Below, piece by piece: positions 3,314 to 55,841 of a stretch of 64,000 nt of DNA (the stretch's first letter is position 1; the number at the start of each line of letters is the position of its first letter). The stretch is from a virus (taxonomy: Duplodnaviria > Caudoviricetes), in IMG/VR virus record IMGVR_UViG_3300032312_001355, positions 8,929 to 72,928 of that record; one strand, given 5' to 3'. Position numbers and translations under genes: made by a program. The notes beneath the pieces were generated by a model, which was not told where the DNA came from, searched no databases, and saw only the letters and a list, made by a program, of their open reading frames with translations.

Positions 3314-5047
3314 GTGGGTTTATTTACTAATGACACACCTGATCAACCTACTCCACCATCCCAGCCGAAGCGCAAAAGAACTAAGTCAACATTTTCTCGT
3401 TCTACACAAGTAATTCAGACTCCAAAGCCTTCAACAATCTCATCTGTATTTACTAATACAGCGCAATCTGCAAGTTACTCCACTCCTAGAACTCTTACAG
3501 CTGCAGCAGCTCAAATTAAAGTTAATGACAAGGGTGAGTTTGAGCAATTTAGAATTCGTCGCTCTGCTGGATCAAGTGCATGGCAAGCAGAAGCTTGGGA
3601 ATACTACGACGCAATCGGTGAAATCAAGTATGCATTTAATTTAGTTGCATCAGTTGTTTCAAGAATCAGAATTTATGCAGCAGTAATTGATGATCCATCA
3701 GAAACTCCAATCTCTGTTCGTCAATCAGAGCTAGTAGATGATCGTCTTGCTGCAGCAGCAGAACGTGCACTTGCACGATTAAATTCTGCATATGGTGGAC
3801 AAGCAGGATTGCTTAGAGATGCCGCACTAAACCTTTCAGTAGCAGGTGAATGCTATCTAGTTCAGATGCCAGCTAAGCCATCACAAAAATTACCAGAGTC
3901 TTGGGATATTCGTTCTGTTGATGAAGTAACAACCGATCCTCGTGGCGGTTTTAATGTTATTGGACGACGTGAACAGGCAACTACTTCACAAGGTGGCACA
4001 GATAAATCTTCTAAATTAGGTGGAAATGCATTTGTAGGACGAATTTGGCGTTCACATCCTCGTTACTCAGATGAAGCAGACTCATCACTTCGTGGTTTGT
4101 TAGATCTCTGCGCCGAACTTCTTCTCCTCAACAGAACATTCCGTGCAACTGCACGTTCACGCCTAAATGCTGGTGCTCTTTACTTACCAGACGGACTTTC
4201 TGTTGCTGCACAAGCAGATGGTGATTTCCCTTATGACTCTGAAGACGGTATCGGTCCTAACTTTACTGCTGAAGAGGCAGAGGATGAGTTTGAAGAGCAG
4301 TTGATGGATGCTATGACAACTCCGATTCGTGACGAAGAGTCCGCATCAGCAGTTGTTCCTCTTATCATCCGTGGTCCTGCAGAACTTGGCGACAAGATTA
4401 AGCAATTCAAGTTTGAGCGTTCATTCGATCCACAACTTGCAGAGCGTTCAGACCGTGTATTAGAGCGCATCTTGCAAGGATTAGATGTTCCAAAGGATGT
4501 TGTAACAGGCCTTGCAAATGTTAAGTACTCAAATGCAATGCAGATTGATGAGTCACTTTACAAGGCACACATCGAGCCACTTATGTTGCTCATTGCAGAT
4601 GCTCTAACAGTTGTCTATCTTCGTCCATATCTTATCGCAAACGGTTATGAAGAAACACAAGTAAATAAAATTGTTGTTTGGTATGACCCATCAGCAATTG
4701 CAACTCGTAATGACCGTGCAACAGATGCTGACGCAGGATTTGACCGTATGGCAGTCTCTGCAAACACATGGCGTCGTGCTCACGGCTTCTCAGATGCAGA
4801 TGCACCAACTCCAAAGGAACTTTCAATCAGACTTCTACAAGAGCGTGGTGTATTTACTCCAGAATTTACTGAAGCAATGCTTTCAGCAATTGCGCCAGAA
4901 GTTATTAACACAGTTCGCTCACAGCAACAGCAATCTTCAGTTGCCCCTATCCCGCCAGAACTTCAGCAAGCACTTGATGCCGCAAGCGAAGGTGCAGAAG
5001 CTGCAGGTATTGCTACAGAAGCCCCAACAGAAGGGCAAGAGCAGTAA
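3314..5047 (+). CDS. Portal protein
   Basis: WQAEAWEYYDAIGEIKYA, RSHPRYSDEADS, LNAGALYLP, RILQGLDVP motifs typical of cluster-B-like actinophage portals; first gene of the head module. Confidence 0.85.
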   Translation: MGLFTNDTPDQPTPPSQPKRKRTKSTFSRSTQVIQTPKPSTISSVFTNTAQSASYSTPRTLTAAAAQIKVNDKGEFEQFRIRRSAGSSAWQAEAWEYYDAIGEIKYAFNLVASVVSRIRIYAAVIDDPSETPISVRQSELVDDRLAAAAERALARLNSAYGGQAGLLRDAALNLSVAGECYLVQMPAKPSQKLPESWDIRSVDEVTTDPRGGFNVIGRREQATTSQGGTDKSSKLGGNAFVGRIWRSHPRYSDEADSSLRGLLDLCAELLLLNRTFRATARSRLNAGALYLPDGLSVAAQADGDFPYDSEDGIGPNFTAEEAEDEFEEQLMDAMTTPIRDEESASAVVPLIIRGPAELGDKIKQFKFERSFDPQLAERSDRVLERILQGLDVPKDVVTGLANVKYSNAMQIDESLYKAHIEPLMLLIADALTVVYLRPYLIANGYEETQVNKIVVWYDPSAIATRNDRATDADAGFDRMAVSANTWRRAHGFSDADAPTPKELSIRLLQERGVFTPEFTEAMLSAIAPEVINTVRSQQQQSSVAPIPPELQQALDAASEGAEAAGIATEAPTEGQEQ

Positions 5048-6213
5048 TGTCTGATCAAGCAATTGACAAAGTTGTTACTTCACTTGTTTCTGCTGGAGAT
5101 CCTTGCTGGGATGGTTACAAGCAAGTTGGAATGAAAGAAAAGAACGGCAAAATGGTTCCTAACTGCGTTCCTGTTGACGCTTCAGATGATTCAGAGGACT
5201 CAGAGTTTGCAGCAAAGAAAAAGAAGCGCACTATCTCTCAAACTCCTGCTCCTAAGAAAGACAGAATTAAAGGCTCTAGCAAAAACAAAAAAGGTTCTGC
5301 ATCAGGAACTCGTAAAGTTAAATTTTCTGCAGCAGTAGAAAAGTCTTTGAAGAATAAAGTTGAACAGCACAACGAAAAAGCAGGTAAGGGCCGTCGTGCA
5401 ACTCTTGGAATGTTAAAAGCTGTTTATCGCAGAGGTGCAGGTGCTTACAGCGTCTCACATCGTCCAGGTATGACACGCAATCAATGGGCGATGGGTCGTG
5501 TAAATGCATTTTTAAGATTGTTGAAGTCTGGAAAGCCATCAAACTCTGCATACACAACAGATAATGATCTACTGCCTTCTGGTCACCCACGTTCAACTAA
5601 GAAATCAAACTCCATTGCAGCTTCAGCAGGTTTGGTTCCTGAAGAAAGCGATCTAGCAGAAGCGCTAGTCGAGATTGCAGATAAATATGGAAGATTCAAT
5701 GAAGATGCCACAGGAATCTGGGCAGGATACACACCTCCAGCCGAAAACGATGTCAGAGGTATCGGAGTCAAATGCTCTAACTGTGTTCTATACATGGGTA
5801 ATGGCCAATGCCGAATCATCGAACTTGAAGTCGAAGACGAGGGTAAGTGTCGTTTCGCGGTTATCCCAGATGGCGTCGTTGATGTCGGAATTCTTGAAGG
5901 CGAAAAACTAGGAAACGATATTCAGTCACCACAAGAGCTAGCAAAGCTTGCTAATGAGTGGAGATATGAGCAAGAATTAAATATTGATCTTCTAAATGAA
6001 GAAGATTATTCATCTCCAGAAGAAGCAATCCTTGCTATGGCAGAGTATTCAGGTTATGGCTACGAAGCAGAGCATGCAATCCGTGCTTCTTGGCTTCGTG
6101 GTGTCCGTAATGGAGATAATCCTTTTAAAAGAGCATCATTACTGGCATCTCTTGGTTACGAAAGCTTAGATGGAGACCTTCTTCCAGTAAAGGCAGAAGA
6201 AGATGGAGAATAA
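5047..6213 (+). CDS. Multidomain minor head protein (CWDGY motif, LKAVYRRG helical domain, HiPIP-like 4-Cys domain)
   Basis: DPCWDGYKQVGMK...VPNCVP; LKAVYRRGAGA...QWAMGRVNAF...DLLPSGHPRST; C243-x2-C246-x8-C255-x12-C268; coupled to portal (TAATG). Confidence 0.65.
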   Translation: MSDQAIDKVVTSLVSAGDPCWDGYKQVGMKEKNGKMVPNCVPVDASDDSEDSEFAAKKKKRTISQTPAPKKDRIKGSSKNKKGSASGTRKVKFSAAVEKSLKNKVEQHNEKAGKGRRATLGMLKAVYRRGAGAYSVSHRPGMTRNQWAMGRVNAFLRLLKSGKPSNSAYTTDNDLLPSGHPRSTKKSNSIAASAGLVPEESDLAEALVEIADKYGRFNEDATGIWAGYTPPAENDVRGIGVKCSNCVLYMGNGQCRIIELEVEDEGKCRFAVIPDGVVDVGILEGEKLGNDIQSPQELAKLANEWRYEQELNIDLLNEEDYSSPEEAILAMAEYSGYGYEAEHAIRASWLRGVRNGDNPFKRASLLASLGYESLDGDLLPVKAEEDGE

Positions 6214-9200
6214 AATTGTTGTAAGCTCTTACAGAGCATATAGCAGTCGTGAACAGGCACGTTTTATTCGTCAAGAAGCAAATGTTTTACTTGAAAAAGC
6301 CAACGAATTTTCTACAACAAGTCGTCGAGTAAATCGTCGATCTGCATACAAGGTTCTTGCTCGTTCTCTACAAAAGACCAGAGGATTACCTTTCTCAATC
6401 CGTAAGCATCAAGCGCTTACAGAGCTTTCTAATTACATCTCTCTAGCTAAATACAACAAGGTTATCGGTTTAGAGGCATTTAATACAGACTTACTTCCAA
6501 CATCACATCCAAGATCTACTCGAATGAACTCAATGAGTGCTTCTGCAATTGCAGAGGCTCAGATGCGTTGGATTCTTGATGACCCACGAATTAAGGATGA
6601 GACAGTAAAGAGCCTTCTTGCTTCTGCAATGTTTTCTCCTATCGACTCTCCAGAGCATAAGTATTCAATGATTCGGTTAGAGAACATGCCTCAGGGACAG
6701 GTTCCTGTTGAAGTTCTTCTAGCTGCAGCAAATCCTTTTGCTGGTAAGAACTCAGCTGCAGCTCGTCGTGCTCGTGAAGCTGTCCAGCTTTCTGACCGCT
6801 TTGAGCGCTGGATTAATATGGGAAGGTCTGCGGCTAAAAGAGCTACAGATGGTTTCCGTGTCTATGTTGCTAGAAACGATGGCTCTACAAGAAGTCTTTC
6901 TGGAGAACTACTAAACCAGAATATGTTTGATCCAAACCTTGTTGACATTGAAATGGGCAAGGGTAAAGTTGCAACAGTTCCTACAAAGCTCGGTGAAGGT
7001 CTTGAAGCTTTTATTAAAAGCAAGGACTCGCAAGATGGTTACTCTTCTGTAGAAGCAGAGGTGCCTAATGGTGCACAGGTACTTCCAGAAAACAGCATTG
7101 TTGTCTCAGATGCTCCAAGTATTTATCGCAAAGATGAGGGTAATAAATATACAGACGATAAATACGACATTGTTAAATTTGATAATCCTAAGGCTGCACA
7201 GACTGCTATTTCCGATGGACAAAAAAGAGCTGCAGAGCTAGATAAGCCAGAACCAAAGCTTCTTAAAAAGGGCGAAGTAGATGCAGACTCAGGTAAGCAG
7301 TTCTGGGATATCGAAGAACCAGTATTCGGTCTCTATCGTCGTGGAAAAAACACACCTCTTGCATTCGCTCAGTCTTGGAAAGATGTAAACAATGAGATCC
7401 TTCGTGACGAACCTTTCCTTGATGAAGATGAAGGTCGTGAATATACACGCCCTGAGCCTCAGACAGCAGACGATAATGTCCCACTTCTAGATCAAGCAGA
7501 TGAAATTTTTAAGCCAGCTAAAAAGAAATCTGAAAAGAAAGAAAAAGTTTCTTCATTCCCATATGAAGTTCCAGATAGAGCATACGAATTTAATCCAAAC
7601 GAAGAGTACACACCAGAGTTTGAGTTTGATGATCCTGTATCAATTGCAAACGATCAGACACCAGAAGAACTAGAAGATGCTCTTCTTACATCAGTAGAAC
7701 CTGTTAGTGATACTGAAAAAGCAACTGGCTACGCTCCAATTAACTTTACAGATGGCCGTGAAAGAGATGTTCCAGCAGAAGCTATCGCTGCAGCAATTCG
7801 TGAGCAAGGTGGAGATGCTGAAATGGCTCTTGCACAGGCTTACGACAAGATTGCAGGAGATAACAAGAACCAAGAAGCCCTTGATAAATCAAGAGGTGCT
7901 AAAGATGAGAAAAAATTAGAAGAAGAAACTAAAAAAGCAGATAAGATTCTTAAGGATGCAGAAAAAGAAGCTAAAAAGATTAAGAAGCCTACATCTGATG
8001 AAATTATTGAAGAAGAGATTCAAAAGCCAGAGCCAAAGGCAACTACTGCTGAGCCAGAAGATGCTCCTACAGAGGGCTTAGAAGATCTTGAAGATGTATC
8101 TGAAGACACATATGTTCCTCCTTTGCTTGAAGGTCTTTCAGAAGAAGAGTTAGCATCCTTTAAGGAAGATGGAGACTACCGACCATTCTTGCCAAAGAAC
8201 GCGGATATAGATACACCTGAAGGACTTTACAAGTTAGATCCAAACCCAGTTGACCCTAAAGAAAACTACACTCCAAAAGATCTTCAAGGTGAAGTACCAC
8301 CAACTACAGCTTTAGATTTGTCTGCAAATACAGTTAAAGATTTAACTAATGAACTGAGCAACGCTATTAATGGCACTGGTGAACACGGTGCTGGTTTTGG
8401 AGAGATGCTAACCGAAGACCCTAACGGTGAACTTGTAAACTCTCCTGTTCCTGCAGAAGCTCTTCGAGATGCTCTTCAACTTAAGGGTAAAGATACAGAT
8501 GCAATTATTGAAAAGATTAATAAGAAGGCTGCAAAAGCAAAGGCAAAAATAAAGCCTCCAGTTTCTGAAGAACCAGAAGTAGAGCCAGATACAAAAGAAG
8601 AAGAGCCTAAACCTAAAAAGGCAGTTACCTACAAGCGTTCAGGTAATCGCACTCTTCTTCGTGCTGGCAAGGGCGGAGCATTTAAGGATAAAGAAATTGC
8701 TGACTTCCTTGACGAGAATGGTTTTGAATGGACTGGAACTGTTGAAAGAGATGGACAAACTCTTCCAGTTAATTCAGAGTCTGCTACACAGACTGATGAA
8801 GAATTTAAGGCTTTTGCTCGTGAACTTCGTGATCGCTTCGGTATTGATTTAGAGCCTCGTGCTGCAACTGCAAAGTCACCTGCTCAAGAACCAATTGATA
8901 TTGATGCGCCAGCTCCTGAACCAGAGGTGCCAACTCCTGCACCTACTCCAGAACCAACTCCAGAAGAAGTTACACCAGAAGAGCCAGTCGTAACTCCTGA
9001 AGAAACACCAAAACCTGTTGAAGATGAAAAAGATAATTGGATTAAGCAAGAAGATGGTACTTGGGTCAACACCAGTACTGGAGAAATTGTAGAAGAGCTT
9101 CCTGAAGGTGCTACTGAAGGAAAACCTGCACCAGAAGAGCCAACAGTTCCTACACCAACTCCTGAAGAAGAAACTCCAGTTGTTGAAGAAACTCCTAAGA

Positions 9201-12200
9201 CAGAAGAAGAAAAGAACTTCATTAGAAAAATATCTGCCTTACTGTTTGATCAAGTAGGCAAGGCTCTCTCTGCGGCTAAAGCAGATAAGGGATTAAAAGC
9301 TCTTGAAGGATTAACAGATCGACAACTATATGACTTGTTCGGTCCTTTCAATGTATTAAAGCTCAATGAGCTTCTTAAGAGAGCTATGGAAAGCGATAAG
9401 GAAAGTGTCTACGGAAATCGCAAAGATATGATTTCCAAGATTATGTTCCTTAAGTATGGTGCTGGATTTAAGAGCAATGAAACTCCGTTTATGCGTAAGT
9501 CAATGGATGAGTTTGAAAATAGTTTAATGCGTAGCTCTACTAAAGAACTAGAACAGATTCTTGATCTTTACTACGATGACATGGATGCAAGAGTAGCTGA
9601 ACAGAACGAAGAAAAAGAAAAAGCAGATGAGCTAAAAAGAGCACGAGAGCGTCGCCGTAAAGCTGCTGAAGATAAACTTCTTGAGAAGTATGGGGACGAT
9701 GCAGATGCTGAAAAACCAGAAGAGGAAGTAGAGCCTGAGCCAGAAGTAGAGACTCCAGCTGAACCACCTCTACCACCTCTTTCTGCTGACGCTAAAGAGA
9801 TTCTTAAAGCTCTTATTGATAGACGCCGCAAGATTCAAAGAAAAATTGATAAAGCAGATCTTGATGAGACAACTACTGCTGCAAAGAAAAAAGCTCTTAA
9901 AGATGAGCTTGATGAAGTAACTAGAATTATTGATTCTCTTGTCCTAGGTGAAAAACCAGCCGAGAAGCCAGAAGAAACTCCTACTGCAGAGGTTAAGGAA
10001 ACAGAAAAGCCTCAAGAACCACAACCAAGTATTACTTCAGTTTTTGCACCTAACTTAAAAGCTGGAGATGTTTTCAAGGATGACTACTTTACAATTGTAA
10101 GTATTGAAACAGGTCTTACTAAAGAAAGAGATATGGAGATAGTTCCAGCAACTAGACTTACTGGATACTATCCAAACTCTGTAGAGCAGAGCACCAAACT
10201 TTGGGCAGATGATACAGAAGTAGATGTGTATCGTGGAGTTACACCTCCATCAAAGGGAGATCTACCAGTACTTAGCAAGCCAGAAATGAAATCCTTTAGT
10301 CCTACTGGAAAACTTCAAATAATTGGAACGTTTAAGAGAAAAGACGGCTCTGAAGGAAAGAAGTGGGGCCTAAAGAACCCAGCTGACGTAGAAAAATACA
10401 ACGCAGCTATGGATGAGTATAAAGAAGAACGTAAACGTCGTATGGCGCTTTGGACTCCTCCAGAGGTTACAACTGTCAATAACGATAATGCAAATACCCC
10501 TGTTAACCCACCCGAGAAATCATCTTATGTATCTAACGTCCCAGCATCTGACGTTCAAGTTGGCGATATTGCATTTAGAAAGAACAAGTACGGGGCTAGA
10601 GAGTTCTTCACGGTTACCAAGGTTCTTGGAACTAAAGATGGAGTTACATCTCTTGAAGGACACTATGTTGGACATCAAACACAGGTTAAGGAATGGCGTG
10701 AAGCTACTCCAATCGACATTATTCGTGGAGAAGTAAATCTTCCAGCATCAGGAGACAAAGAACCTCTAGATAGACCAGATAAATCTCTTCCTAACTATTC
10801 TCAACTTGAAAAAGAACGTCAAGAAAAAATTGCAGAGGCAGATAAGGGTTATACCTTTAATGCTGAAGGATCTATCGAAGCTACACCAAAAGTATCCAAA
10901 CCAAGACTACCTGCATTCTATGGGTCAGCAGAAGAGCTTTTGGCTCTTGGAGATGGAGCTAATATTCAATCAGCTCTAGATGCTAGAGAAAATGGATATG
11001 TAGTTTTTGACTTTGAAACTTTAGGAAACGATGTACAGAATGTATTAAATCCAGACGCACCTATCCAAGCAGCTGCAGTTAGATATGTTGGTGGTGAAAA
11101 GGTAGAAGAGCTTAACATCTACATTAATCCTGAGAAGCCTTTGGGCGATTACTATTATGAAACAGATAGTGAAGGAAATAAAGTTCTTCGTGCAAATAGA
11201 ATGAGAGATGCCGAAGGCAATCCAATAACAGATGAATGGTTAGCTACACAGCCAAGTATTCAAGAACAACTACAAAAACTTGTTGACTTCTTTGGACCAG
11301 ACCCTATTCTTGTTGGACAAAACATTGGCTTTGATTTAAACGTGCTACAACGCTGGTCTCAAAAAGTTGGAATTGACTTCGAACTAAAGGGATCAATTGA
11401 CACGCTACCAATTGCTCAAGCACTACAAAAAATTGAACGTGGAACAGTTACATTCCCAGAGAATCCTGCAGAAGGAGATGAAGCTCTCTCTGCTCTAGGA
11501 AATGCTTGGACATGGAGTGGAACAGCGTGGAAAGCACCTTCTAATGCTCTTAATCAATTAGCGGAGCGTCTAGGAGTAACTACTGACTCTTCTGATTTCC
11601 ACAATGCATTATTCGATGTTGGAGTAACTGATCAAGTTTTAAGAAAGCTACTTGAAAATCTTAAAGCTGGCAACATCCCTACTGGAGGAAGCGCAGCTTA
11701 TGCAGAAGGATTTAAGAAGTGGGTACTTTCTCTAGCTGAAGAAAAGAAGAAAGCTTCTAAGAGAGAAGCTGACAAGATTGTTTCTGAAGGACTTGCTGGA
11801 AAACCTGTAACTGGTGAAAATGTTGATGCAGCTGTAGATGAAGTAAATTCTGTAGTAGAAGAGCCTGTAACTATTGTTGAAGGCGAAGAATCTTCAGACT
11901 CTCCAAAGGAATATGTTTCACCTCTATATGGAGATAAACTTAGTGAAGAATGGGTTAAAGATCCAGAAAACACAGACTTTATCTCTAACGCAAGAATAAA
12001 AGACTTAAAAGTCTCAGACTTTATTACTGGCTCTGATGGAGAGCTTTACGAAATTATTAAACTTGAAGATGATGAAGTACAGCCGGGCAACGCAGTAAGA
12101 ATTATTAGAGCAAATCTTAATACTGGTCAGATTCTCGAAGAAAGACAATCAGAAAGAGATGATGGAGGAACTGGATTCTTCCTAGTTGGAAAAGTTGATG

Positions 12201-15200
12201 GTGGCTTCTATCGCAGAAAAGACAATGCCGATAAGAGCAATGCTCAAATAGAAACAGAAACTATCGAAGCTATTCCAGATGTTGATCCAGTTGTTATCCC
12301 TGAAGTACAGCCTGTTAAGGGTGAGAATGTAACTCCTGAGCAGGTAGCAACAGTTGTTAACGATGCAATTGATGCGATCACAACCTCTAAGCCAGATGCA
12401 TCTATTGAAGAAGCTGTCAAGGGTCTTAATGTTGATGAAACCATTAAAGAGGCAGTAACTGCTAAGCCTGAAAACGCAGAAGGAGAAACAGGTTTCCATA
12501 TCTCCTCTGACGGAGTTACTTTAATTAAGCCTGGAGACAAGGTTATCCACGCTAAGACTAAGAGAACTGGAACTGTAAGCGTTCTCCTTCCTTCATATCA
12601 GGGTGGAAAATATAAGAATTATGTAAAAGTTAGATATGACGATTCTAATGAAAGAGAGCCTGTAGCATCTAAGAATCTTTCAATTGTTTTCCGACCTGAA
12701 TTTGTACCAGTAGTTAAGCCTAAAGGTGAGACAACTGTTAAAGATATTTCAAACAAGATCAAGGATATTCAAGGAACAACACCTGCAGAAGGTTCAGTAA
12801 ATCCTGATGAGCTTGCAGAGAAGTTTAAGTCTGCAGAAAAAGAACGAGATGACAAGGTAAAGGAAACTAACTTTGTAAAGACATCTACTTCTGTAGTTGC
12901 AAAGGTAAAAGAAAATCTTCCAGCACGAGGAACAACTGAAAGCTCTCTTCCAAGTCTTAAAACTGGAAATCTATTCGATGTAACTTTTGCAATAGACAAA
13001 CCAACTGAGAAAGAGCTTAAAGATAAAGGCGTAGACTTAAGCCTAGATTCAGCAGATGACTTAATTGTATTTAGAGCAACTAAAGATTTATTCCTCAGAA
13101 ATCAACCTGTTGCAACTATTAAACCAGACGGATCAATTATCTGGCGTACCGAGAACGACAAGCGTTCATTCTCATTAGAGCTTGAAAGAGTTCTTCAAGA
13201 TTTCATAGATCCAGTAACAAATCTTAACGCAATGATTGTTATCAATGAACCAGAAGATACTGAAGGAACAGACGCCGATAACTTTGGCAACGGAACTCTT
13301 CTTGGTGAATCAGAGAGCTCATTTGACTATAACAACATCTCTAACTTCCCTCCAACAGAGGAGCAGAAGAAGATTGTTGATGCAATTATGACTGGTGGGG
13401 ATGTCATAGTTCAAGCTTTGGCTGGCACTGGAAAGACTTCTACTCTAGTTCTTGCTGCAAAGAGAATTTTGGCAGAAAATCCAGCTAAAAAACTTCTTTA
13501 CATTGTATTTAATAAGGAAACTGCTGAAGAAGCTCAAGGCAGAATGCCTCAGAACGTAGATTCTAGAACTATGGACAACATTGTCTACTCAATGCTTCCA
13601 GATAATCACAAGGAAAGAAATAAACTTAGCAGTGTCTTTAAGATAAATGAGAGAAGTCTTATCGATTACACTGACTATGTAAACCTATTTGAGTACTACC
13701 AGTACGAGCCAGTAACTGTATCTATCAGAGGCACAGAAACAACTCTAGGAAGAAACGATCTTGTTCAAGAAATAAGAGAAGCAGTAGATAGATTTGCAAT
13801 TTCAGCAGACGATGTTTTAACTGAAAAGCATTTCACTAAGAAAACTCCATTCTACGACACAGTTCCACCAATTCTTGTCGAGTATGCAAAGAAAATGTGG
13901 AAAGATGTAAGTACTGAAGAAGGTTGGGACCCTTCCTCAAAGAAGCTGTCAAGAATTGATTATTCACATATGCTTAAAGCTTGGGCACTAACTAAGCCTC
14001 AATTTATAGATGGTTTAAACTCTGGATCAACTAGCACTAAGCAATTTAAAGATAGAAAGAACGATATGTTCTTCTTTGATGAAGCTCAGGATATGAACCC
14101 AGTAATTGTAAAACTTTTGGCTGACCAAGAAGGAATTCAAAAGGTATATGTTGGAGATAGTAATCAAGCTATCTATGCATTCCGTGGAGCTGTAGATGAG
14201 CTTAATAACGTAAAGAATGCAAAAGAGCTATACCTAACTCAGACATTCCGTTTCGGTGCAAAGGTTGCAGGAATAGGAAACAGATTCCTAACTCTACTTA
14301 ACTCTAAAAATAAGGTAGTAGGAAAGCCTGGAGAAGACGACGGCGAAATTGTAGAGAATATGGAAGACCCTACTGCAATTATTGCTAGATCAAACGGTGG
14401 AGTTATCGACAGTGTCTTTGACCTATTAGCTAAGGGAAAGAACCCAGGATTAAACTTAGAGACCTACTACAAGGCTATGTCATATGCAAAGTCTGCAGCA
14501 TGGTTGATTGCAGCTAACAAGGGAACACCTGCATACAAGAAGCCAAAACTCCATGAAGATTTAGCAGGTTTCCAAAACTGGAACGAAGTCCTAAAGGCAG
14601 TTCAGGATGGCAAATCAGTAGGTGGAGCGATGTACATGGTTCGTCTTCTAAGAGATAGAAAGATGACTATAAAAGAGTTGGTAGATAAGCTCAACAGTAT
14701 TACTCCTATCCGTGGTACAGGGTTTAGAACAGATGCATACGTTCCTGTAGGCAAGGAAGCACTCGCAGACGGAATTACTGGAGAGCTCGGTACTGGTAGA
14801 ACTAATAGTGGGTTTAAAGGAAAGCTTACATACACAATTAAAGACGGAGTAATATCTTTCCAAAACTCAAAGTCATATAAAGATTTTCTTTTGAAGGACT
14901 TTACATATAACCCAGAAAAATTCTCTTTTGAAAAGGCTTTTGGAAAAGAGCAAGAAGAAGATATCCTTAATTTAATTAACGATGTTAGACGATGGGTACA
15001 AAACTATCCTCCAAGAATCCCTATTGACGCTGAAATTATTACAGCACATAAGTCAAAGGGTAAAGAATGGGATCGCGTAAAGCTTTTTGATGATTTCAAG
15101 CAACCTGAGATCAATGATGAAGGAGAGATGCAACTTCCTGACCCAGAAGAACTCAGAATCTCATACGTTGCGGCTACTCGTGCAAAGAAGTCTATTGACA

Positions 15201-17044
15201 TTGGAGAAAACCTAAAGTGGATTTACGATGTCACATCTGAAGATGATGAAAAGCCTCAGCTAACTGACGTCGAAAAACTTAGCGGAATGACCGTTACACC
15301 AGATCCAGAACCTGTAACTCCAGAAGAGGTTGGCAACGAGGTTGTCAAGGCTAGAAAGATTACAGATCAGAAGACTTTGGAAGTTGCTAACCGACTAATC
15401 GAACTTATTGAAAAGGGCGTTGTTCCTTGGACAAAGGGATGGTCTGGTGGAGGCTTCCTTCCAACAAACGGAAAAACAAACAAGAGTTATCAAGGAACTA
15501 ACACACTTGCTCTCTGGGCAGCAATGCATCTAAATGATTGGACAGACCCTAGATTCTTAACCTTCAATCAAGGTAAATCACTAGGAGGCTTTGTTCGTAA
15601 GGGCGAGACAGGCACAAAGATTCTAAAGCCTAACGTTGTAACTAAAGAAGTAAAGCAGCCAGATGGAAGCATTAAAAAAGAAGGATACATCTACTTTACA
15701 GAAGTTCCAGTATTTAACGTTTCTCAGTTTGAGAAACTAAACCTTCCACCTTTGGTAAAGAAGGATCCAGTACCTGTATTAGATATTGAAACTCAAATAC
15801 TAGAGTCATATAAAGATCACCCAGAGATTATTTACCGTCCTCAAGATAAGGCTTATTACTTACCTTCTGTAGACAAGATTTACTTACCTTTAAGAGAGCA
15901 ATTTGATACTAGTATCGGTTTCATAGAGACATTTTTCCACGAACTAGGTCACAGTACAGGACACGTTTCACGTCTAGGTAAAGAAGGAAAGCGCAAGGAT
16001 CTTCAAGATAATTATGGCAACCATAAAGCAAGCCGTGGTGAAGAAGAACTTATTGCAGAAATTACAGTTGCACTTATTGCTGCAGAGTTTGGTGTTGAAA
16101 TTGACTGGGGAAATACAGCTTCATACGCACAAGGATGGTTAAAGCCTCTCAAGGATGATCCGGGAATGATTATCATTGCTGCAAAGCAAGCTCAAGATGC
16201 AGTTAACTGGATGCTTGGAATTAAGCCAGAAGATAAGAACGCAACTCCAGAACCTGATGCACAAGCACCAGAAGCTGGCGAAGGCGTAGGCAGTGAAGGT
16301 CAGACTGGAGAGCAAATTGCTGATCAAAAACCTGAAACTCCAGAAGCAACTCCAGAACCTAATGTTGGAGAGCAAGGCCAAACTGGAGAAGAGATTGCTA
16401 AAAATACTCCAAAGAATAAAGATGCCTCTAAACAACCTACAAAACTTACTGTCAATGATGAAGAATACGATCTATGGGATGACATTAACTATGACCGTAC
16501 TTCAGAAGAAGGAAAAGATAACGATAATTTAGAGTCTGCACACGGAATTTTTGCCTCAAGAATTCTAGAAGGACAAGAGCTAATTAAAGATAGAAATGAA
16601 ATTGGAAAATACATTGCCGACATATTGAAAAAATATGGTTACGGCAACAAGCTCTTCTATTTGGCTGGAGGATCTGTAGCCGATAAGATGCTAGGAGATG
16701 ACCCTTCATGGGAAGGTTCCGATGGAACTCCTTATGGTGGAGGAATTGAAGCTGGTATAGGTCTTGCAAATAGCGAAGCTTTCGCAGATGGAGATCCTTT
16801 AAAGGGTGTCGAGTTCCCTGTAGTTCTGGTTAGAAAAAGAGGAATTTCTAAGGTAGCTTTGCTTCACGAAATAGCTCACCTTATGGAAGGTGGATGGAAG
16901 AGCAATACTGGAGGAGGCCATAATCAAGCATGGCACCAGACATTGCTGACATTGCTACGACAAGAGGGTTTTCAAAAAGAAGCTAATCTACTAGCATTAA
17001 CCATAGGAGAAGTGAAAGGAGATACAGGTGTTATCAATCCCTGA
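6203..17044 (+). CDS. Giant polyvalent protein (3613 aa): SH3-like repeats, DEDDh exonuclease, UvrD-like SF1 helicase, ArdC-like ssDNA-binding domain plus zincin, second zincin
   Basis: FDFET/GQNIGFD/HNALFD exonuclease motifs (about 11.0-11.65 kb); ALAGTGKT, FDEAQD, VGDSNQAIY, TAHKSKG, YVAATRAK helicase motifs (13.35-15.22 kb); LIEKGVVPW...FLTFNQ...VRKGE...VFNVSQ and HELGH...EELIAE (15.39-16.22 kb); HEIAH...GH..W (16.86-16.94 kb). Confidence 0.85.
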   Translation: MENKIVVSSYRAYSSREQARFIRQEANVLLEKANEFSTTSRRVNRRSAYKVLARSLQKTRGLPFSIRKHQALTELSNYISLAKYNKVIGLEAFNTDLLPTSHPRSTRMNSMSASAIAEAQMRWILDDPRIKDETVKSLLASAMFSPIDSPEHKYSMIRLENMPQGQVPVEVLLAAANPFAGKNSAAARRAREAVQLSDRFERWINMGRSAAKRATDGFRVYVARNDGSTRSLSGELLNQNMFDPNLVDIEMGKGKVATVPTKLGEGLEAFIKSKDSQDGYSSVEAEVPNGAQVLPENSIVVSDAPSIYRKDEGNKYTDDKYDIVKFDNPKAAQTAISDGQKRAAELDKPEPKLLKKGEVDADSGKQFWDIEEPVFGLYRRGKNTPLAFAQSWKDVNNEILRDEPFLDEDEGREYTRPEPQTADDNVPLLDQADEIFKPAKKKSEKKEKVSSFPYEVPDRAYEFNPNEEYTPEFEFDDPVSIANDQTPEELEDALLTSVEPVSDTEKATGYAPINFTDGRERDVPAEAIAAAIREQGGDAEMALAQAYDKIAGDNKNQEALDKSRGAKDEKKLEEETKKADKILKDAEKEAKKIKKPTSDEIIEEEIQKPEPKATTAEPEDAPTEGLEDLEDVSEDTYVPPLLEGLSEEELASFKEDGDYRPFLPKNADIDTPEGLYKLDPNPVDPKENYTPKDLQGEVPPTTALDLSANTVKDLTNELSNAINGTGEHGAGFGEMLTEDPNGELVNSPVPAEALRDALQLKGKDTDAIIEKINKKAAKAKAKIKPPVSEEPEVEPDTKEEEPKPKKAVTYKRSGNRTLLRAGKGGAFKDKEIADFLDENGFEWTGTVERDGQTLPVNSESATQTDEEFKAFARELRDRFGIDLEPRAATAKSPAQEPIDIDAPAPEPEVPTPAPTPEPTPEEVTPEEPVVTPEETPKPVEDEKDNWIKQEDGTWVNTSTGEIVEELPEGATEGKPAPEEPTVPTPTPEEETPVVEETPKTEEEKNFIRKISALLFDQVGKALSAAKADKGLKALEGLTDRQLYDLFGPFNVLKLNELLKRAMESDKESVYGNRKDMISKIMFLKYGAGFKSNETPFMRKSMDEFENSLMRSSTKELEQILDLYYDDMDARVAEQNEEKEKADELKRARERRRKAAEDKLLEKYGDDADAEKPEEEVEPEPEVETPAEPPLPPLSADAKEILKALIDRRRKIQRKIDKADLDETTTAAKKKALKDELDEVTRIIDSLVLGEKPAEKPEETPTAEVKETEKPQEPQPSITSVFAPNLKAGDVFKDDYFTIVSIETGLTKERDMEIVPATRLTGYYPNSVEQSTKLWADDTEVDVYRGVTPPSKGDLPVLSKPEMKSFSPTGKLQIIGTFKRKDGSEGKKWGLKNPADVEKYNAAMDEYKEERKRRMALWTPPEVTTVNNDNANTPVNPPEKSSYVSNVPASDVQVGDIAFRKNKYGAREFFTVTKVLGTKDGVTSLEGHYVGHQTQVKEWREATPIDIIRGEVNLPASGDKEPLDRPDKSLPNYSQLEKERQEKIAEADKGYTFNAEGSIEATPKVSKPRLPAFYGSAEELLALGDGANIQSALDARENGYVVFDFETLGNDVQNVLNPDAPIQAAAVRYVGGEKVEELNIYINPEKPLGDYYYETDSEGNKVLRANRMRDAEGNPITDEWLATQPSIQEQLQKLVDFFGPDPILVGQNIGFDLNVLQRWSQKVGIDFELKGSIDTLPIAQALQKIERGTVTFPENPAEGDEALSALGNAWTWSGTAWKAPSNALNQLAERLGVTTDSSDFHNALFDVGVTDQVLRKLLENLKAGNIPTGGSAAYAEGFKKWVLSLAEEKKKASKREADKIVSEGLAGKPVTGENVDAAVDEVNSVVEEPVTIVEGEESSDSPKEYVSPLYGDKLSEEWVKDPENTDFISNARIKDLKVSDFITGSDGELYEIIKLEDDEVQPGNAVRIIRANLNTGQILEERQSERDDGGTGFFLVGKVDGGFYRRKDNADKSNAQIETETIEAIPDVDPVVIPEVQPVKGENVTPEQVATVVNDAIDAITTSKPDASIEEAVKGLNVDETIKEAVTAKPENAEGETGFHISSDGVTLIKPGDKVIHAKTKRTGTVSVLLPSYQGGKYKNYVKVRYDDSNEREPVASKNLSIVFRPEFVPVVKPKGETTVKDISNKIKDIQGTTPAEGSVNPDELAEKFKSAEKERDDKVKETNFVKTSTSVVAKVKENLPARGTTESSLPSLKTGNLFDVTFAIDKPTEKELKDKGVDLSLDSADDLIVFRATKDLFLRNQPVATIKPDGSIIWRTENDKRSFSLELERVLQDFIDPVTNLNAMIVINEPEDTEGTDADNFGNGTLLGESESSFDYNNISNFPPTEEQKKIVDAIMTGGDVIVQALAGTGKTSTLVLAAKRILAENPAKKLLYIVFNKETAEEAQGRMPQNVDSRTMDNIVYSMLPDNHKERNKLSSVFKINERSLIDYTDYVNLFEYYQYEPVTVSIRGTETTLGRNDLVQEIREAVDRFAISADDVLTEKHFTKKTPFYDTVPPILVEYAKKMWKDVSTEEGWDPSSKKLSRIDYSHMLKAWALTKPQFIDGLNSGSTSTKQFKDRKNDMFFFDEAQDMNPVIVKLLADQEGIQKVYVGDSNQAIYAFRGAVDELNNVKNAKELYLTQTFRFGAKVAGIGNRFLTLLNSKNKVVGKPGEDDGEIVENMEDPTAIIARSNGGVIDSVFDLLAKGKNPGLNLETYYKAMSYAKSAAWLIAANKGTPAYKKPKLHEDLAGFQNWNEVLKAVQDGKSVGGAMYMVRLLRDRKMTIKELVDKLNSITPIRGTGFRTDAYVPVGKEALADGITGELGTGRTNSGFKGKLTYTIKDGVISFQNSKSYKDFLLKDFTYNPEKFSFEKAFGKEQEEDILNLINDVRRWVQNYPPRIPIDAEIITAHKSKGKEWDRVKLFDDFKQPEINDEGEMQLPDPEELRISYVAATRAKKSIDIGENLKWIYDVTSEDDEKPQLTDVEKLSGMTVTPDPEPVTPEEVGNEVVKARKITDQKTLEVANRLIELIEKGVVPWTKGWSGGGFLPTNGKTNKSYQGTNTLALWAAMHLNDWTDPRFLTFNQGKSLGGFVRKGETGTKILKPNVVTKEVKQPDGSIKKEGYIYFTEVPVFNVSQFEKLNLPPLVKKDPVPVLDIETQILESYKDHPEIIYRPQDKAYYLPSVDKIYLPLREQFDTSIGFIETFFHELGHSTGHVSRLGKEGKRKDLQDNYGNHKASRGEEELIAEITVALIAAEFGVEIDWGNTASYAQGWLKPLKDDPGMIIIAAKQAQDAVNWMLGIKPEDKNATPEPDAQAPEAGEGVGSEGQTGEQIADQKPETPEATPEPNVGEQGQTGEEIAKNTPKNKDASKQPTKLTVNDEEYDLWDDINYDRTSEEGKDNDNLESAHGIFASRILEGQELIKDRNEIGKYIADILKKYGYGNKLFYLAGGSVADKMLGDDPSWEGSDGTPYGGGIEAGIGLANSEAFADGDPLKGVEFPVVLVRKRGISKVALLHEIAHLMEGGWKSNTGGGHNQAWHQTLLTLLRQEGFQKEANLLALTIGEVKGDTGVINP

Positions 17045-17150: not shown

Positions 17151-17287
17151 TGAGTCTTACAGATAAAGAACTTTACACAGAGGCAATGATTGCTGCATAC
17201 AGAAGGCTTATGGATGTAGCTTTCTGGGACCCAGCAGCAGCCGATGATGACGAAGATGCTGAACCTAAAAAGGAAGAGGATAAATGA
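17150..17287 (+). CDS. Small acidic protein (45 aa, MSLTDKELYTEAMIAAYRR...), not in ORF track
   Basis: TAATG overlap upstream and ATGA overlap downstream fill the gap exactly. Confidence 0.55.
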   Translation: MSLTDKELYTEAMIAAYRRLMDVAFWDPAAADDDEDAEPKKEEDK

Positions 17288-17991
17288 AAACCGTAGTGGT
17301 TAAGTCTTATCCTGAAGAAGGAATGGCTCTTGCATACCTAAAAGGTGAAGATGTTGTAAAGCAACTAGTTTTTTATAGTGAACGATTTGGGATTTCTACT
17401 CTCATAGATGGCAAGTTTCGCTCATACGCAGAAGGCGATGTAAGTCTTGACGGTAAGTCATTTATCTACATTGAACCAGCTAACTACAAAGTTGTCCGTG
17501 AAATGTTTCAAAGAGCAGAGTCAATGGGTAAATATCTTACTTACAAAGATGTAGAAAAATACAGAGTAGATTATGTACTTAAGAAAGCTATGACAGCAGC
17601 TGTAGAGACATCTGAAGGATGTCCTCCTGCAACCCAAGATATTGGTATTAATCTTGATAATCGTAAGAACGCTATTGACACCGCTATGTACGGACCTCTC
17701 AATCCTCTAGAACCTAACGATGAGTACTGGGAAGCGATTGCTGACGAATGGTCAGTTGATAAAGAGACTGCAAAGAAGCAACTTTGTGGCAATTGTGCTG
17801 TATTTATTCAGACTCCAAAGATGCTTGATTGTATTGCTTCTGGGCTTGGTAATGAAGAAGGAAATGATGCTTGGGGCTCAATTGATGCTGGAGATTTAGG
17901 GTATTGTGAAGCATTCGACTTTAAATGCGCTGCATCCCGCACATGTCGTGCATGGGTCGCTGGTGGACCAGTAACAGAGGAGAGCAAGTAA
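17284..17991 (+). CDS. Cys-rich putative head-associated protein
   Basis: C-terminal LCGNCAVF...C...GYCEAFDFKCAASRTCRAWVAGGP domain; located in the head operon. Confidence 0.6.
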   Translation: MKTVVVKSYPEEGMALAYLKGEDVVKQLVFYSERFGISTLIDGKFRSYAEGDVSLDGKSFIYIEPANYKVVREMFQRAESMGKYLTYKDVEKYRVDYVLKKAMTAAVETSEGCPPATQDIGINLDNRKNAIDTAMYGPLNPLEPNDEYWEAIADEWSVDKETAKKQLCGNCAVFIQTPKMLDCIASGLGNEEGNDAWGSIDAGDLGYCEAFDFKCAASRTCRAWVAGGPVTEESK

Positions 17992-20900
17992 TGGACTATG
18001 TTGGCCGCAACGGTTCTAAGGTACTTTTCATCTCCGAAACATTGGGAACAGTTGTTGATGAGTTCCAAAATGTTGTGCTTGAGCTAGACCTTAAAGAACC
18101 TCTTATTGCAGCCACCTACTGGGATAGTAACTCTGAAAGACCTACTGGACCTGCAGTAGAGCTTGCAGCAGCAGCTCTAACAGATTTAGATATTAAAGTT
18201 TTTTCAAACAATGACCGTATGTACACAATTCCTGACTCCGTTGTTGCAGAAGCAAAACGCGGTCTTGAGTGGCGTAAAGAAGAAAATCGCGGTGGAACAT
18301 CTGTTGGTCTTAATACTGCTCGCACACTAGCTCGTGGCGGTCAAATTGGTATTCGTAAACTTCGTCATATTGCTAAATACTTTCCACGTCACGAAGTAGA
18401 TAAAAAGGGAACTGGCTACAAGCCGGGACAAAAAAATTATCCATCCAATGGTCGCATCGCTTGGGCTCTTTGGGGTGGAGACGCTGCTCGTTCATGGGCA
18501 TCTGCAATTGTAGAACGTGAAAATAAGAAGGCTAAGTCAAACTCAATTCTTGCGGGTGGATTAGATCCTATGCAATATGAGATGCCAAAGAGAGTTAACT
18601 ACGATTCTTTTATTACCTCAAAGACAATGCCTGAAGATAATGTAATTGAATTTTTTGCCCGTATTCGTTTAGACGGATCTGGTATTGATCGCCTGTATCG
18701 TATTGAGCCAGCAGGTCACATTTATGTGTGGGATGACGGCGACTGGGATGACATGGGCATGACAGATGCTGATATGTCTATGTATGACAAAATTCTTGAC
18801 GACCCTAACGATAGAACACCTTGCGGACAAATTCCTGTAGATACTGAAACAGCACTTTTCATTGCAGCACTTCTAGATAACGAACCTTTTATTGCACATA
18901 AGGTAGATAAGTTATACCCAGAAGAAAGCAAGATTTATGAAGAAGCATATCCAGATCTTGATATGGATCTACTAGATGATTTAGCTCTTCAAGATGAAAT
19001 GTCTGACTCATGGGATTTTGTAGACGACAGTTTAACTGCTGCAGGAGAAGCTCCAAGTTCTGGATCTAGGGCAGACAAAGATGGAGATGGAAAGCTAGAT
19101 AGTGATTTTCTATCCGAAAAGGCTTCTGCTCAACTTCGTGACAAATCAGGTAAATTTGCAAAAATGGGTGGACGAGTAGTTATTGGCGGGAACGCAAAGT
19201 ATCAAGGAAATATTCGTTCTTTAGATGCAACAACACAGACCGTTAAGGTAGAGCTTAATAACGGAAATATGATAGATATTCCTGCATCAATGACAGAGCC
19301 TTTAGAGTCATATGTTCCTATCCCTAATGCAGTTGCAGAAGGAGAGTTAGATACTTCTGGAATTCTTGGTGAGCCTCGTACTCCAATGGATTCTCCAATT
19401 CGTATGCCAGGAACTCTTCCTCCACTTAACGCATCGAATCTTAATTTAATGCTTACAAACTATCCACAGTGGGTGTCAGAGCAAAGACTTTCTCCAGACC
19501 CACAACCAACTCAAGCTCCTGCAAGTTCTAATCTAAAAACATCAGCACCTCAGCAACCTCAAGGTGTTGAAAAAGATGTTGCTAAAGACAATCCTTTATA
19601 TAAGTATTACCCAGAAAAGTTTACAAATTGGACTAAGGAAGTAAATGCTTACAATCTTCCTATCCTTAAGCCTTGGCTTGAGTCTGGACCAGACAGTCGT
19701 CGCAAATACAATCCATTTGTAGATCCAGAAAAAACAAAAAAATTTGTTGAAGAAAAAGGAATTAAATCCCCAAAGCTTGACTCTAAGGGTCGTCCTCTAA
19801 AGGCTTCTGCTGGTGAAGAAAAAGCTATGACACCAGAGACTTCTGATGTATCTATCTTGCATATGGCAATCGTTTCTCCTGATGATCCTCAGGCAGTAAT
19901 GGATTTAGTTGCTTTAGTTCCAGCATCTAATAAAACAATTCAACCAACCACATATAGTCGTAAAGATAGTAAATGGGTACACGATCCTCAAATCTTAAAT
20001 GATCTTCAAAGTGCAACTCCTCCACCAGTAATTGTTTTAGATGATGCAACTTTAGTAGATGTACTAGAGCAAGTTGATAATAAAGCAATCACTGCTGCAG
20101 GTGGTGCAGACCGTAATCGTGGAAATGCTGAAAAGCTTCGTCGTTATTGGACCTATGGTAAGGGTGCAGCCAAGATTCGTTGGAAGACTCCAGGAGACTG
20201 GACTCGTTGCTATCGTCAGTTAGCTAAATATATGGGTCCTCGTGCCAAGGGCTATTGCGCCCTTCGTCACAGAGAGATGAATGGTTATTGGCCAGGAGAT
20301 AAAAAGAATCAAGAGATGGGCGCTTTTAGTGTCAATACCTTGCACAATTACGATGAACTTTTGAGCACTTTTGTTATGCGTGCTAAAGCTGCAGATGCTA
20401 GAGCAAGAGTAATGACAGCTGGCGGAGATATGGAAAGCCAAGAAGGATCTGAATTCTTCATCCCTCTCGTTATACCTGAAGAAGTCGAATCTGGAGACGG
20501 AAGAGTTATCGTTAAAGATGCTCTTTCTATTAGAGAGCTTCCACTACCTCTTTTATGGCAAATTCAAACAGGAGAAGGCCACAATGGGTCTGTCGTAGTT
20601 GGAAAAATTGTTTCAATGGAGAGAGTCGATGGCGGAATTGGAAACGCTAAAGGATTTTTCGACAAAGGCTCTTATGGGCAAGAAGCTGAACGACTAGTTC
20701 GTGGTGGCTTCATTCGTGGTGTTTCGGCAGATCTCGATCAATTTGAGGGTGACGAAGAGGTGCCAGAGGTTAAAGAAACATCTGACACTAAGGTAGAAAG
20801 CGGTAAAATAAAGATCAAGAAAGCACGAGTCATGGCTGTGACTTTGGTGCCGAAGCCAGCTTTCCAAGAATGCTCAATTCAACTCGCCAATGAGCTTGGC

Positions 20901-48973: not shown

Positions 48974-49270
48974 ATGTCCGAGCTTGTGCCACCTTGGAAA
49001 TATGAACAACCGCTCTGTGCTGAGATAGGCGCAGAGCTGTTTTATATTGAAGATAAAGATGAAATAGTTGTTGGCCAAAGACTTAATGCTTATGTTGAAG
49101 CTAAAAAAATATGTTCATCATGTGCTCACATAGTTGAGTGCGGTCAATGGGCTATAAAAAATGAAAAGCATGGGTTTTGGGGAGGATATTCTCCAGAAGA
49201 AAGAAAACAAATAAGAGGTAAATTAAATATAATACTTACAGAAGATATGACGTTTGCTTTAAAAGAGTAG
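48974..49270 (+). CDS. whiB: WhiB-family transcription factor
   Basis: C...LFY...AKKICSSC..IVEC..WA...GFWGG.SPEERK; ATG at 48974 with GGAGGGG RBS. Confidence 0.9.
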   Translation: MSELVPPWKYEQPLCAEIGAELFYIEDKDEIVVGQRLNAYVEAKKICSSCAHIVECGQWAIKNEKHGFWGGYSPEERKQIRGKLNIILTEDMTFALKE

Positions 49271-55600: not shown

Positions 55601-55841
55601 TAATTTCCCCCTCTACTAAAAAAACTTTTCCTTGATAGCAGCAGTGATCTGCCCCATCAAGGGTCTCTACAGCTGTATTGTATACACCTTCAAGAAAATC
55701 TTCACGACCAGTAGCCCATACTACATCTGAAATTAACACAGTCTTGTTTTCAGAAATGTTCTTAATAGTTAGGTTAAGCAGTGGAGCGTTTTCGCTCTCT
55801 TCTGCTTTCCATTCAAAATTACCTACTGTTTCCATTATCAT
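55590..55841 (-). CDS. Hypothetical protein with DHCC motif
   Basis: 83-aa ORF, ATGA-coupled to the upstream collagen gene. Confidence 0.6.

Follow-up and report, generated by a model that had tools for sequence, protein, structure and literature searches.

A cysteine-free 401-kDa protein with a putative N-terminal anchor and four predicted enzyme units in the head module of an uncultured actinobacterial phage: a candidate packaged polyvalent protein

Proteins that enter the cell together with phage DNA decide the first minutes of infection. Polyvalent proteins, which Iyer et al. 2017 (PMC5512222), in the sections considered here, propose to be packaged and injected, are a known class that is almost wholly untested. 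Here, we analyse the gene of a 3,613-residue protein, referred to below as the giant, which lies in a 64,000-nucleotide stretch of viral DNA (positions 8,929 to 72,928 of IMG/VR record IMGVR_UViG_3300032312_001355). This whole stretch is called the window, and all coordinates refer to it unless another locus is named. The record is a 72.9-kb fragment, estimated to be 55% complete, of an uncultured freshwater actinobacterial phage. The host assignment is based on two WhiB-family genes (49004-49210 and 50007-50198) and on the actinophage relatives of the capsid protein, which is 75% identical to the capsid of Actinomycetia phage DSL-LC01 and has further relatives in Microbacterium, Arthrobacter, Gordonia and Mycobacterium phages. 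No GenBank phage matched the head module in a megablast search.

The gene of the giant (6203..17044) is an intact open reading frame (ORF) of 3,613 codons with no internal stop, and the computed product has a mass of 401 kDa, an isoelectric point (pI) of 4.8, a net charge of -173 and no cysteine at all. It stands in a run of head genes in the order portal, 388-residue DUF5824 protein, giant, 235-residue cysteine-rich protein, 1,611-residue fusion, major capsid protein, and major tail protein with adaptor, and its start overlaps the end of the 388-residue gene by 11 nucleotides. The portal, DUF5824, giant, fusion and capsid genes, and with them every module of the giant described below, are on the plus strand. 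A preliminary description of this DNA, made without database searches, had estimated the protein at roughly 400 kDa and had pointed to the overlap with the upstream head gene and to the place between portal and protease, all of which is borne out.

Four enzyme units occupy the second half of the chain. The first is a DEDDh (epsilon/PolC-like) 3'-5' exonuclease (10988..11920, residues 1596-1906), matched by Pfam RNase_T (PF00929, E = 3.4e-12) and phrog_192 (1.3e-21), with the PolC exonuclease as its nearest solved relative (PDB 2P1J, 4.4e-11). Its motifs Exo I DxE (D1603, E1605), Exo II (D1711) and Exo III Hx4D (H1800, D1805) are all present, and these residues are invariant in 69 of 69 homologues. 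It is followed by a UvrD-family superfamily 1 (SF1) helicase (13316..15253, residues 2372-3017), which matches UvrD-helicase (PF00580, 8.5e-19), UvrD_C (PF13361) and phrog_1967 (9e-76) and which a PDB search places nearest to FBH1 (E = 1.8e-29). Three motifs, AGTGKT with K2411, FFDEAQ with D2626/E2627 and YVAATRA (motif VI) with Y2988, together with the N- and C-terminal UvrD domains, assign it to the UvrD/Rep SF1A helicases; Walker A, Walker B (DExQ) and motif VI are invariant in all 50 homologues compared (50/50). The whole giant holds one G-x4-GK[ST] site and one UvrD region.

The third unit is of the ArdC type. A single-stranded DNA (ssDNA)-binding ArdC-N domain (15380..15712, residues 3060-3170; ArdcN, PF08401, 1e-24) precedes the zincin MPTase-PolyVal (15836..16189, residues 3212-3329; PF18818, 1.1e-24), which bears HELGHSTGH and the glutamate helix EEELIAE. 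Residues 3061-3335 align with residues 13-282 of the 297-residue ArdC of R388 (PDB 6I89, E = 8.5e-33). Both HELGH and EEELIAE are conserved among the homologues, 49 of 49 of which retain H3246, E3247, H3250 and H3254.

The last unit is an optional C-terminal domain (16586..17002, residues ~3462-3600) with the motif HEIAH (H3555) and a further histidine, H3573. Pfam gave no match for it, nor did phmmer against the PDB. An AlphaFold (AF2) model has a mean predicted local distance difference test score (pLDDT) of 83 and a predicted template modelling score (pTM) of 0.85; Foldseek found nothing significant for this model, and the list of structural matches from VIA-align consists almost wholly of zincins, though with modest Z scores of 4-5.6 (abylysin 5.6, jannalysin 5.5, selecase 5.2, Spartan 5.0, Wss1 4.0). 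The domain occurs in about 31 of the 50 homologues with the full architecture, and H3555, E3556, H3559 and H3573 are invariant in all 31 that have it. Judging by the model, it is a probable minimal zincin. A 987-residue protein, P0260, which is probably a fragment, combines a Pfam SprT-like domain with ArdC-N and MPTase in the same chain, and an hhalign comparison of that SprT-like domain with the C-terminal zincin gave an alignment confined to the ArdC part. If the SprT-like domain sits after the ArdC unit, the terminal slot would accept different zincins of the DNA-protease type.

The preliminary description had listed the five exonuclease residues, K2411, D2626 and Y2988 of the helicase, and an ArdC-like domain with a HELGH zincin at H3246; each was found where it had been placed, and Pfam and PHROGs agree on the helicase. 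With regard to the second zincin that it had proposed, the position of H3555 stands, and the fold is that of a model with modest Z scores and no Pfam match. It had left the conservation of the catalytic motifs to be checked, and they are invariant in every homologue that bears the module concerned (31-69 homologues). The catalytic residues of all four units stay invariant down to 24-35% domain identity, and the enzyme cargo appears to be under selection because this invariance spans so wide a divergence. PADLOC returned just generic UvrD (GajB) and DEDDh matches.

The part of the giant that defines its family lies elsewhere and was overlooked in the preliminary description. By sequence comparison, the first ~320 residues appear to form an undescribed N-terminal anchor with two sub-domains. 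Sub-domain 1 (6230..6730, residues 10-176) is helical, with AF2 pLDDT values of 80-94 over the stretch, and carries at residues 96-106 the motif DLLPxSHPRST, the columns of which are invariant in the family. Sub-domain 2 (6749..7117, residues 183-305) has an NSxAAR...Q(L/R)xDRxxR(F/W)..MG motif, also written NSxAAR...QRRDRxGRF..MGG and thus of RDRxGRF type, followed by a beta domain. The AlphaFold model of the anchor (pLDDT 74) has a helical part at residues 15-176 and a beta part at residues 217-303. Foldseek of this model against the PDB and BFVD gave nothing at E <= 0.001, its short high-probability matches being to uncultured-phage proteins, some of them labelled ChaB, XkdF or prohead protease, and VIA-align returned generic helical bundles alone (Z <= 6.3).

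Pieces of the anchor recur in other head proteins. Residues 24-162 align by hhalign with the core of the neighbouring DUF5824 proteins (probability 92%, E = 5e-7, 122 columns), and BLAST finds 39% identity over 56 residues between the anchor and the upstream 388-residue protein. Within the window, the motif DLLPxxHP(R/K)S occurs only in the giant (residue 96) and in the DUF5824 protein (residue 174), with four DLLP in total in the six-frame translation. As for sub-domain 2, hhalign identifies it as the extreme N-terminus of Cece gp68 (99.3%, E = 1e-20) and of A3Wally gp85 (99.1%), at residues 16-101 of the 466-residue post-portal protein of DSL-LC01 (98.5%) and, weakly, inside the 1,611-residue protease fusion of the present phage (residues 397-467, 72%). 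Because its pieces recur in this way, the anchor seems to be built from modules that circulate among the proteins of portal-adjacent genes. Such sharing is what a head-incorporation device would predict, without proving one.

Two surveys were made of the proteins that carry the anchor. A word-indexed search of metagenome proteins with residues 1-300 of the giant retrieved 73 giant proteins, about 50 of which have the same exonuclease, UvrD, ArdC and MPTase set in the same domain order. The others have the exonuclease alone, or an added NUDIX or ART domain, or, in P0071 and P0072, a DnaG primase with exonuclease and UvrD. An exhaustive search with a profile (A3) made from an alignment of seven diverged N-termini yielded 484 clusters when grouped at 50% identity, and 209 of these scored E <= 1e-30. 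In every case the match falls at residues ~1-330 of proteins of 1.8-7.0 thousand residues; shorter matching proteins are probably contig-end fragments.

The constancy of the anchor is accompanied by a highly variable cargo, which was counted in 122 full-size representatives of the anchor family. The exonuclease is present in 62 of the 122, the helicase in 33 (30 of them with the exonuclease), ArdC/MPTase in 15 and the C-terminal zincin in one, and 56 have none of the four enzyme modules. Spot checks of further members revealed multiple GNAT, ART, NUDIX, WYL or KTSC domains, or no Pfam domain at all, the last being the case for the 3,289-residue giant of DSL-LC01, A3Wally gp85, P0145 and P0099; a Pfam search of the syntenic giants of DSL-LC01, A3Wally and Cece gave no domains either. 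The domain order also shifts among relatives: the helicase may precede the exonuclease, ArdC may precede the helicase, and ArdC may be present in two copies. Because so many members are without a recognisable enzyme, a point that the preliminary description likewise missed, the conserved role of the giant would be independent of this particular enzyme set. Besides the anchor, the only near-universal part of the family is a core repeat of ~110 residues, for which a hidden Markov model (HMM) matches 110 of the 122 representatives, with several copies in 83. The giant has two copies found with this HMM (7553..7897, residues 451-565, and 8213..8542, residues 671-780) and shares the repeat with the giant of DSL-LC01; self-BLAST of the giant with a low-complexity filter showed no internal repeats, which surfaced with HMMs only.

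The gene slot is as constant as the anchor. In six diverged loci the order is fixed as DUF1360, portal, DUF5824 protein, giant, protease fusion of ~1,400-1,850 residues and capsid of ~690 residues, and it holds across same-architecture, primase, exonuclease-only and domain-less forms. Giants occupy the same slot in the GenBank phages DSL-LC01, A3Wally and Cece. Literature searches on DUF5824, cultured relatives and giant proteins of freshwater actinophages retrieved nothing specific.

Identity among relatives is mosaic from module to module. Compared with the giant, P0004, for instance, has an anchor of 94% identity, an exonuclease of 53% and an MPTase domain of 100%. Across P0002-P0050, anchors of 90-98% identity occur in one protein with exonucleases or helicases of 50-60%, and the reverse is found too. 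This module-by-module pattern suggests frequent intragenic recombination among co-occurring phages and, as far as sequences can tell, is the pattern expected of cargo in an arms race. P0071 (L005:4348-13788) and P0072 are anchor-bearing giants in the head slot that combine DnaG primase/Toprim, DEDDh exonuclease and UvrD, and in locus L005 a second giant gene (more than 3,900 residues) lies right downstream of P0071.

The remaining parts of the giant are linkers and conserved modules to which no function could be assigned by the searches made. An acidic Pro/Glu/Thr-rich linker (8840..9202, residues 880-1000, pI 4.1) follows the core repeats, and a tandem pair of conserved modules (10010..10972, residues 1270-1590), found in 52 of the 122 representatives, precedes the exonuclease; neither Pfam nor the ESM Atlas gave a usable match for this pair. 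Further conserved inter-domain modules, delimited by homologue comparison and HMMs, extend from the exonuclease to the helicase (11930..13312, residues 1910-2370). Composition defines a second acidic linker, rich in Gly/Glu/Gln/Pro and with an internal short repeat, between the two zincins (16235..16522, residues 3345-3440). The acidic Pro/Glu linkers of the preliminary description are therefore real by composition, and these long stretches are probably disordered. A Pfam scan of seven unannotated segments of the giant, with E up to 5, produced noise alone.

Among the neighbouring genes, the portal protein (3314..5047; phrog_776, 1.3e-109) is followed by the 388-residue DUF5824 protein (5047..6213; Pfam DUF5824, 3.1e-9), which has cysteine clusters and DLLP motifs at residues 174 and 377. 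This protein is itself modular, with a conserved core, DNDLLPxxHP(R/K)S, an optional cysteine-cluster domain and a C-terminal DxDLLP tail, and the DUF5824 proteins of two diverged phages (L005:2750-4345 and L032:7956-10001) have, in addition, a ferritin/Dps-like domain at the N-terminus. The DUF5824 protein may carry cargo too, as a second and smaller carrier of the head module. Both genes that flank the giant encode cysteine clusters, the 388-residue protein (5047-6213) having 6 cysteines and the 235-residue protein (17284-17991) 7; the DSL-LC01 homologue of the latter is annotated as a high-potential iron-sulfur protein. The 1,611-residue fusion (17925..22760) includes a head-maturation-protease region (phrog_18402, 1.1e-58; phrog_859, 2.6e-94). 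Its residues 848-1275 match PHROGs labelled portal, head maturation protease and virion structural protein, additional PHROG matches lie at residues 64-203 and 731-797, two RDxxGKF motifs are found at residues 403 and 1450, and Pfam gave no match for this protein. The major capsid protein (22929..25004; phrog_777, 3.2e-85) comes next.

Elsewhere in the window, a separate replication module at 40.4-45.5 kb encodes Pol A, which has an exonuclease of its own, as well as an SNF2 helicase and a PD-(D/E)XK nuclease; the last of these is a distinct gene (44593-45522). A leftward block, transcribed opposite to the structural operon, includes a 2,120-residue protein with an ALK/LTK glycine-rich domain and an E1_FCCH-like match (57098-63460, minus strand) and the genes at 55838-57088, 54015-55460 and 52717-54015 (minus strand); two collagen-repeat proteins and one beta-propeller-repeat protein belong to the block, the products of which are probably fibres or host-recognition proteins.

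The amino acid composition of the giant sets it apart from the intracellular enzymes of the phage. None of its 3,613 residues is a cysteine, compared with 27 expected from the other 52 ORFs (P about 2e-12). The same holds for 69 of the 122 representatives, and the maximum among them is 1.5 cysteines per 1,000 residues. Also free of cysteine are the capsid protein (22929-25004), a 1,094-residue tape-measure-like protein (29926-33210) and the minor tail proteins at 33210-35834 and 37913-39529. The intracellular enzymes do contain cysteine (Pol A 4, SNF2 helicase 8, PD-(D/E)XK nuclease 4), the replication enzymes having 6-13 per 1,000 residues. In composition, the helicase and exonuclease of the giant thus resemble the capsid, tape-measure and minor tail proteins and not the intracellular enzymes. 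We infer that this may reflect a life outside the cytoplasm and perhaps also a crossing of the tail by the unfolded chain.

Plain features of this locus and its relatives are the architecture, catalytic centres that are both intact and conserved, a slot that does not change, the combination of a constant anchor with a variable cargo, and the compositional bias. On balance, they make it fairly probable that the giant is a polyvalent protein of the phage type, with a conserved anchor, acidic linkers and a lineage-specific cargo of four enzymes, packed in the head and delivered with the DNA. Association with the virion is consistent with the fixed slot, an anchor with swappable cargo, the pieces shared with head proteins and the cysteine-free composition, and it is from these features that we infer packaging, ejection, processing and targets. 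According to this proposal, the anchor (residues 1-320) and the core repeats that follow it would incorporate the giant into the procapsid beside the portal. The protein would be made late, loaded into the head and expelled via the tail with the DNA, perhaps travelling as an unfolded cysteine-free chain, either whole or with its linkers already cleaved, be it by the zincins of the giant or by the prohead protease. Its modules would then act on the entering DNA prior to any phage gene expression. The ArdC unit would counter type I restriction, like R388 ArdC; helicase and exonuclease would process or clear ssDNA, 3' ends and DNA-bound proteins; and the Spartan/Wss1-like zincins would cut the polyprotein itself and/or DNA-bound host proteins.

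Several observations weigh against this proposal. A net charge of -173 is unusual for a protein packed beside DNA. The portal, major tail and adaptor proteins of the same phage do contain cysteine, and a protein may lack cysteine for other reasons as well. The anchor is without a structural relative, whether solved or annotated, and its putative head-targeting role derives from synteny and from the sharing of its pieces; the Pfam DUF5824 model (PF19141) does not match it directly, the link being at the level of profiles (92%). Around half of the family is without a recognisable enzyme, and the conserved function may accordingly be structural, with the cargo secondary. The source phage is uncultured, and no virion proteomics of cultured relatives was found in the literature.

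A bolder form of the packaged-protein proposal can be put forward tentatively, and we hold it to be unlikely as a whole. The anchor would serve a large actinophage lineage as a general and transferable tag for loading the head, and the cargo of the giant a DNA-tethered protein-clearing machine that travels as an unfolded cysteine-free thread. The UvrD/FBH1-like motor would strip bound host proteins, such as restriction complexes and nucleoid-type silencers, the two Spartan/Wss1-like, DNA-associated zincins would degrade the stripped proteins, and the exonuclease would trim exposed 3' ends. Were the anchor such a tag, the swappable cargo behind it would be explained.

The alternatives to a delivered enzyme set differ in what they make of the cargo. 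The giant might be primarily structural, acting inside the head or in ejection as a scaffold, a DNA-spooling core or a conduit, much like the T7 core proteins or the phiKZ inner body, with the enzymes as opportunistic passengers. The 56 of 122 representatives without any enzyme module, the several relatives without any Pfam domain, and the restriction of the near-universal parts to anchor and core repeat all speak for a structural role. Passengers of this kind would not be expected to keep the catalytic residues of four enzymes invariant over wide divergence, and we consider a primarily structural protein quite improbable; the idea is nonetheless compatible with, and not exclusive of, a packaged polyvalent protein.

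A similarly low standing is given to the possibility that the giant is not packaged and works as a late intracellular DNA-processing enzyme, trimming or resolving concatemers or repairing nicks before or during packaging. An exonuclease, an SF1 helicase and an ssDNA-binding domain are ordinary activities of DNA metabolism, and a role coupled to packaging would be in keeping with transcription alongside the packaging genes. However, the phage has a separate replication and recombination module, relatives that occupy this slot have ART, GNAT or NUDIX domains or lack an enzyme altogether, and the N-terminal anchor is common to other head proteins. Furthermore, ArdC is a factor of the establishment phase (PMC7213743), and the cysteine-free composition resembles that of capsid and tape measure and is unlike that of intracellular enzymes.

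The preliminary description had gone further in proposing that the giant acts as a one-chain RecBCD/AdnAB-like unit that unwinds and trims DNA, coats ssDNA and cleaves proteins. Read in this way, the single chain would resect the ends of the genome as it comes in. The co-occurrence of the exonuclease with the helicase in 30 of 33 helicase-bearing representatives fits such a machine, and the primase-bearing cousins suggest work on the phage's own DNA. Against this, the giant has one motor and not two, and its nuclease is a DnaQ-like 3'-5' exonuclease; a Pfam search with E up to 0.1-5 found no PD-(D/E)XK nuclease of the RecB family in it. The domain order is variable among relatives, and the long linkers and zincins suggest, in line with the sections of PMC5512222 considered here, that the modules may act separately once the chain is cleaved. 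Membership of the RecBCD/AdnAB group was rejected for want of a RecB nuclease and of a second motor, and this part of the description fell; a resection machine of this kind seems very unlikely. Finally, an assembly chimera or a spurious long ORF, which might be suspected of a giant known here from one metagenomic contig that is 55% complete, has a negligible probability, and a chimera is excluded because the domain order and the neighbours are the same in about 50 independent clusters, drawn from JGI, ENA, NCBI and Logan assemblies, and invariant motifs and domain matches are spread over the full length of the protein.

If the giant is a packaged polyvalent protein, its enzyme set points to anti-restriction and DNA-clearing strategies directed against the very abundant freshwater Actinobacteria. 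ArdC, UvrD and DnaG primase, so far tied to the conjugative transfer of ssDNA, are in this family encoded in the head module of double-stranded DNA phages. The size of the family (484 clusters) and its clean anchor-plus-cargo design make the anchor a defined candidate for a head-loading module that is testable in cultured Microbacterium phages, and a true loading tag could offer a way to bring chosen proteins into capsids.

The kind of protein described here is already known. As in the polyvalent proteins of Iyer et al. 2017, a giant single chain unites at least two disparate activities (exonuclease, SF1 helicase, ssDNA-binding domain and two zincins), the hub domains MPTase-PolyVal and ArdC-N are both present, and the context is of the phage type, with the gene between those for portal and protease/capsid; on domains and context alike, the assignment to this class in the preliminary description stands. 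The ART, GNAT and NUDIX cargo of the relatives falls within the repertoire that PMC5512222, in the sections considered, gives for injected polyvalent proteins. With regard to the zincins, these sections propose that they process the chain, prior to its delivery or afterwards, or else that they attack proteins of the host, with self-cutting favoured. The same sections assign DnaG primase to conjugative elements alone, ArdC-N mostly to such elements, and UvrD to a few proteins of actinomycete plasmids, whereas ArdC-N, UvrD and, in the cousins, DnaG primase are found here in a phage head module. Compared with what these sections describe outside the LPD catalogue, the anchor is not MuF, a portal fusion or DarA-N.

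R388 ArdC binds ssDNA and has to act in the recipient if hsdRMS is to be overcome; its protease domain is similar to Spartan and IrrE (PMC7213743). The protein (PDB 6I89/6SNA; Gonzalez-Montes et al. 2020) and the ArdC unit of the giant have in common an ssDNA-binding N-domain, HExxH and a glutamate helix. The former is a free-standing plasmid protein of 297 residues, whereas the latter is a module near the end of a 401-kDa phage protein, with a predicted role in anti-restriction. P1 DarB, to which the preliminary description had likened the giant, is likewise a very large phage protein with a helicase, and it is packed in the head and shields the incoming DNA from type I restriction. The likeness extends to size and location; it fails in that DarB has an LPD36 N-terminus, an N6-adenine methyltransferase and an SF2 helicase, and the giant an SF1 helicase behind another N-terminus. 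Neither Pfam nor PHROGs found a methyltransferase domain in the giant and no sequence relation to DarB was seen, and homology was rejected on the missing methyltransferase and the SF1 rather than SF2 helicase.

The virion RNA polymerase of coliphage N4 (about 3,500 residues) is of similar size, is packaged in few copies, is ejected via the tail and has a zincin; as summarised in the sections of PMC5512222 considered here, it has separate regions for encapsidation and injection. The giant differs in having no RNA polymerase module, in its phage lineage and in the N-terminal place of its anchor. The MuF/SPP1 gp7 proteins and MuF-fused toxins, the gene of which follows the portal, offer the same sequence of a conserved head-associated N-terminus and variable effectors, but no Phage_Mu_F match of Pfam and no structural match to them was found in the anchor, which at the level of profiles appears related to DUF5824. 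The closest counterparts are the giants of DSL-LC01 (3,289 residues) and of the Microbacterium phages Cece (gp68) and A3Wally (gp85), which occupy the same slot and share the anchor or its second sub-domain; they are annotated as hypothetical and, unlike the present giant, have no recognisable enzyme domains. Set beside these systems, what appears to be new is a widespread family of anchors that keeps to one slot and has a DUF5824-related paralogue in the adjacent gene. To this may be added the phage head-module context of ArdC-N, UvrD and DnaG primase, the family-wide avoidance of cysteine, and a second, optional and probable minimal zincin at the C-terminus.

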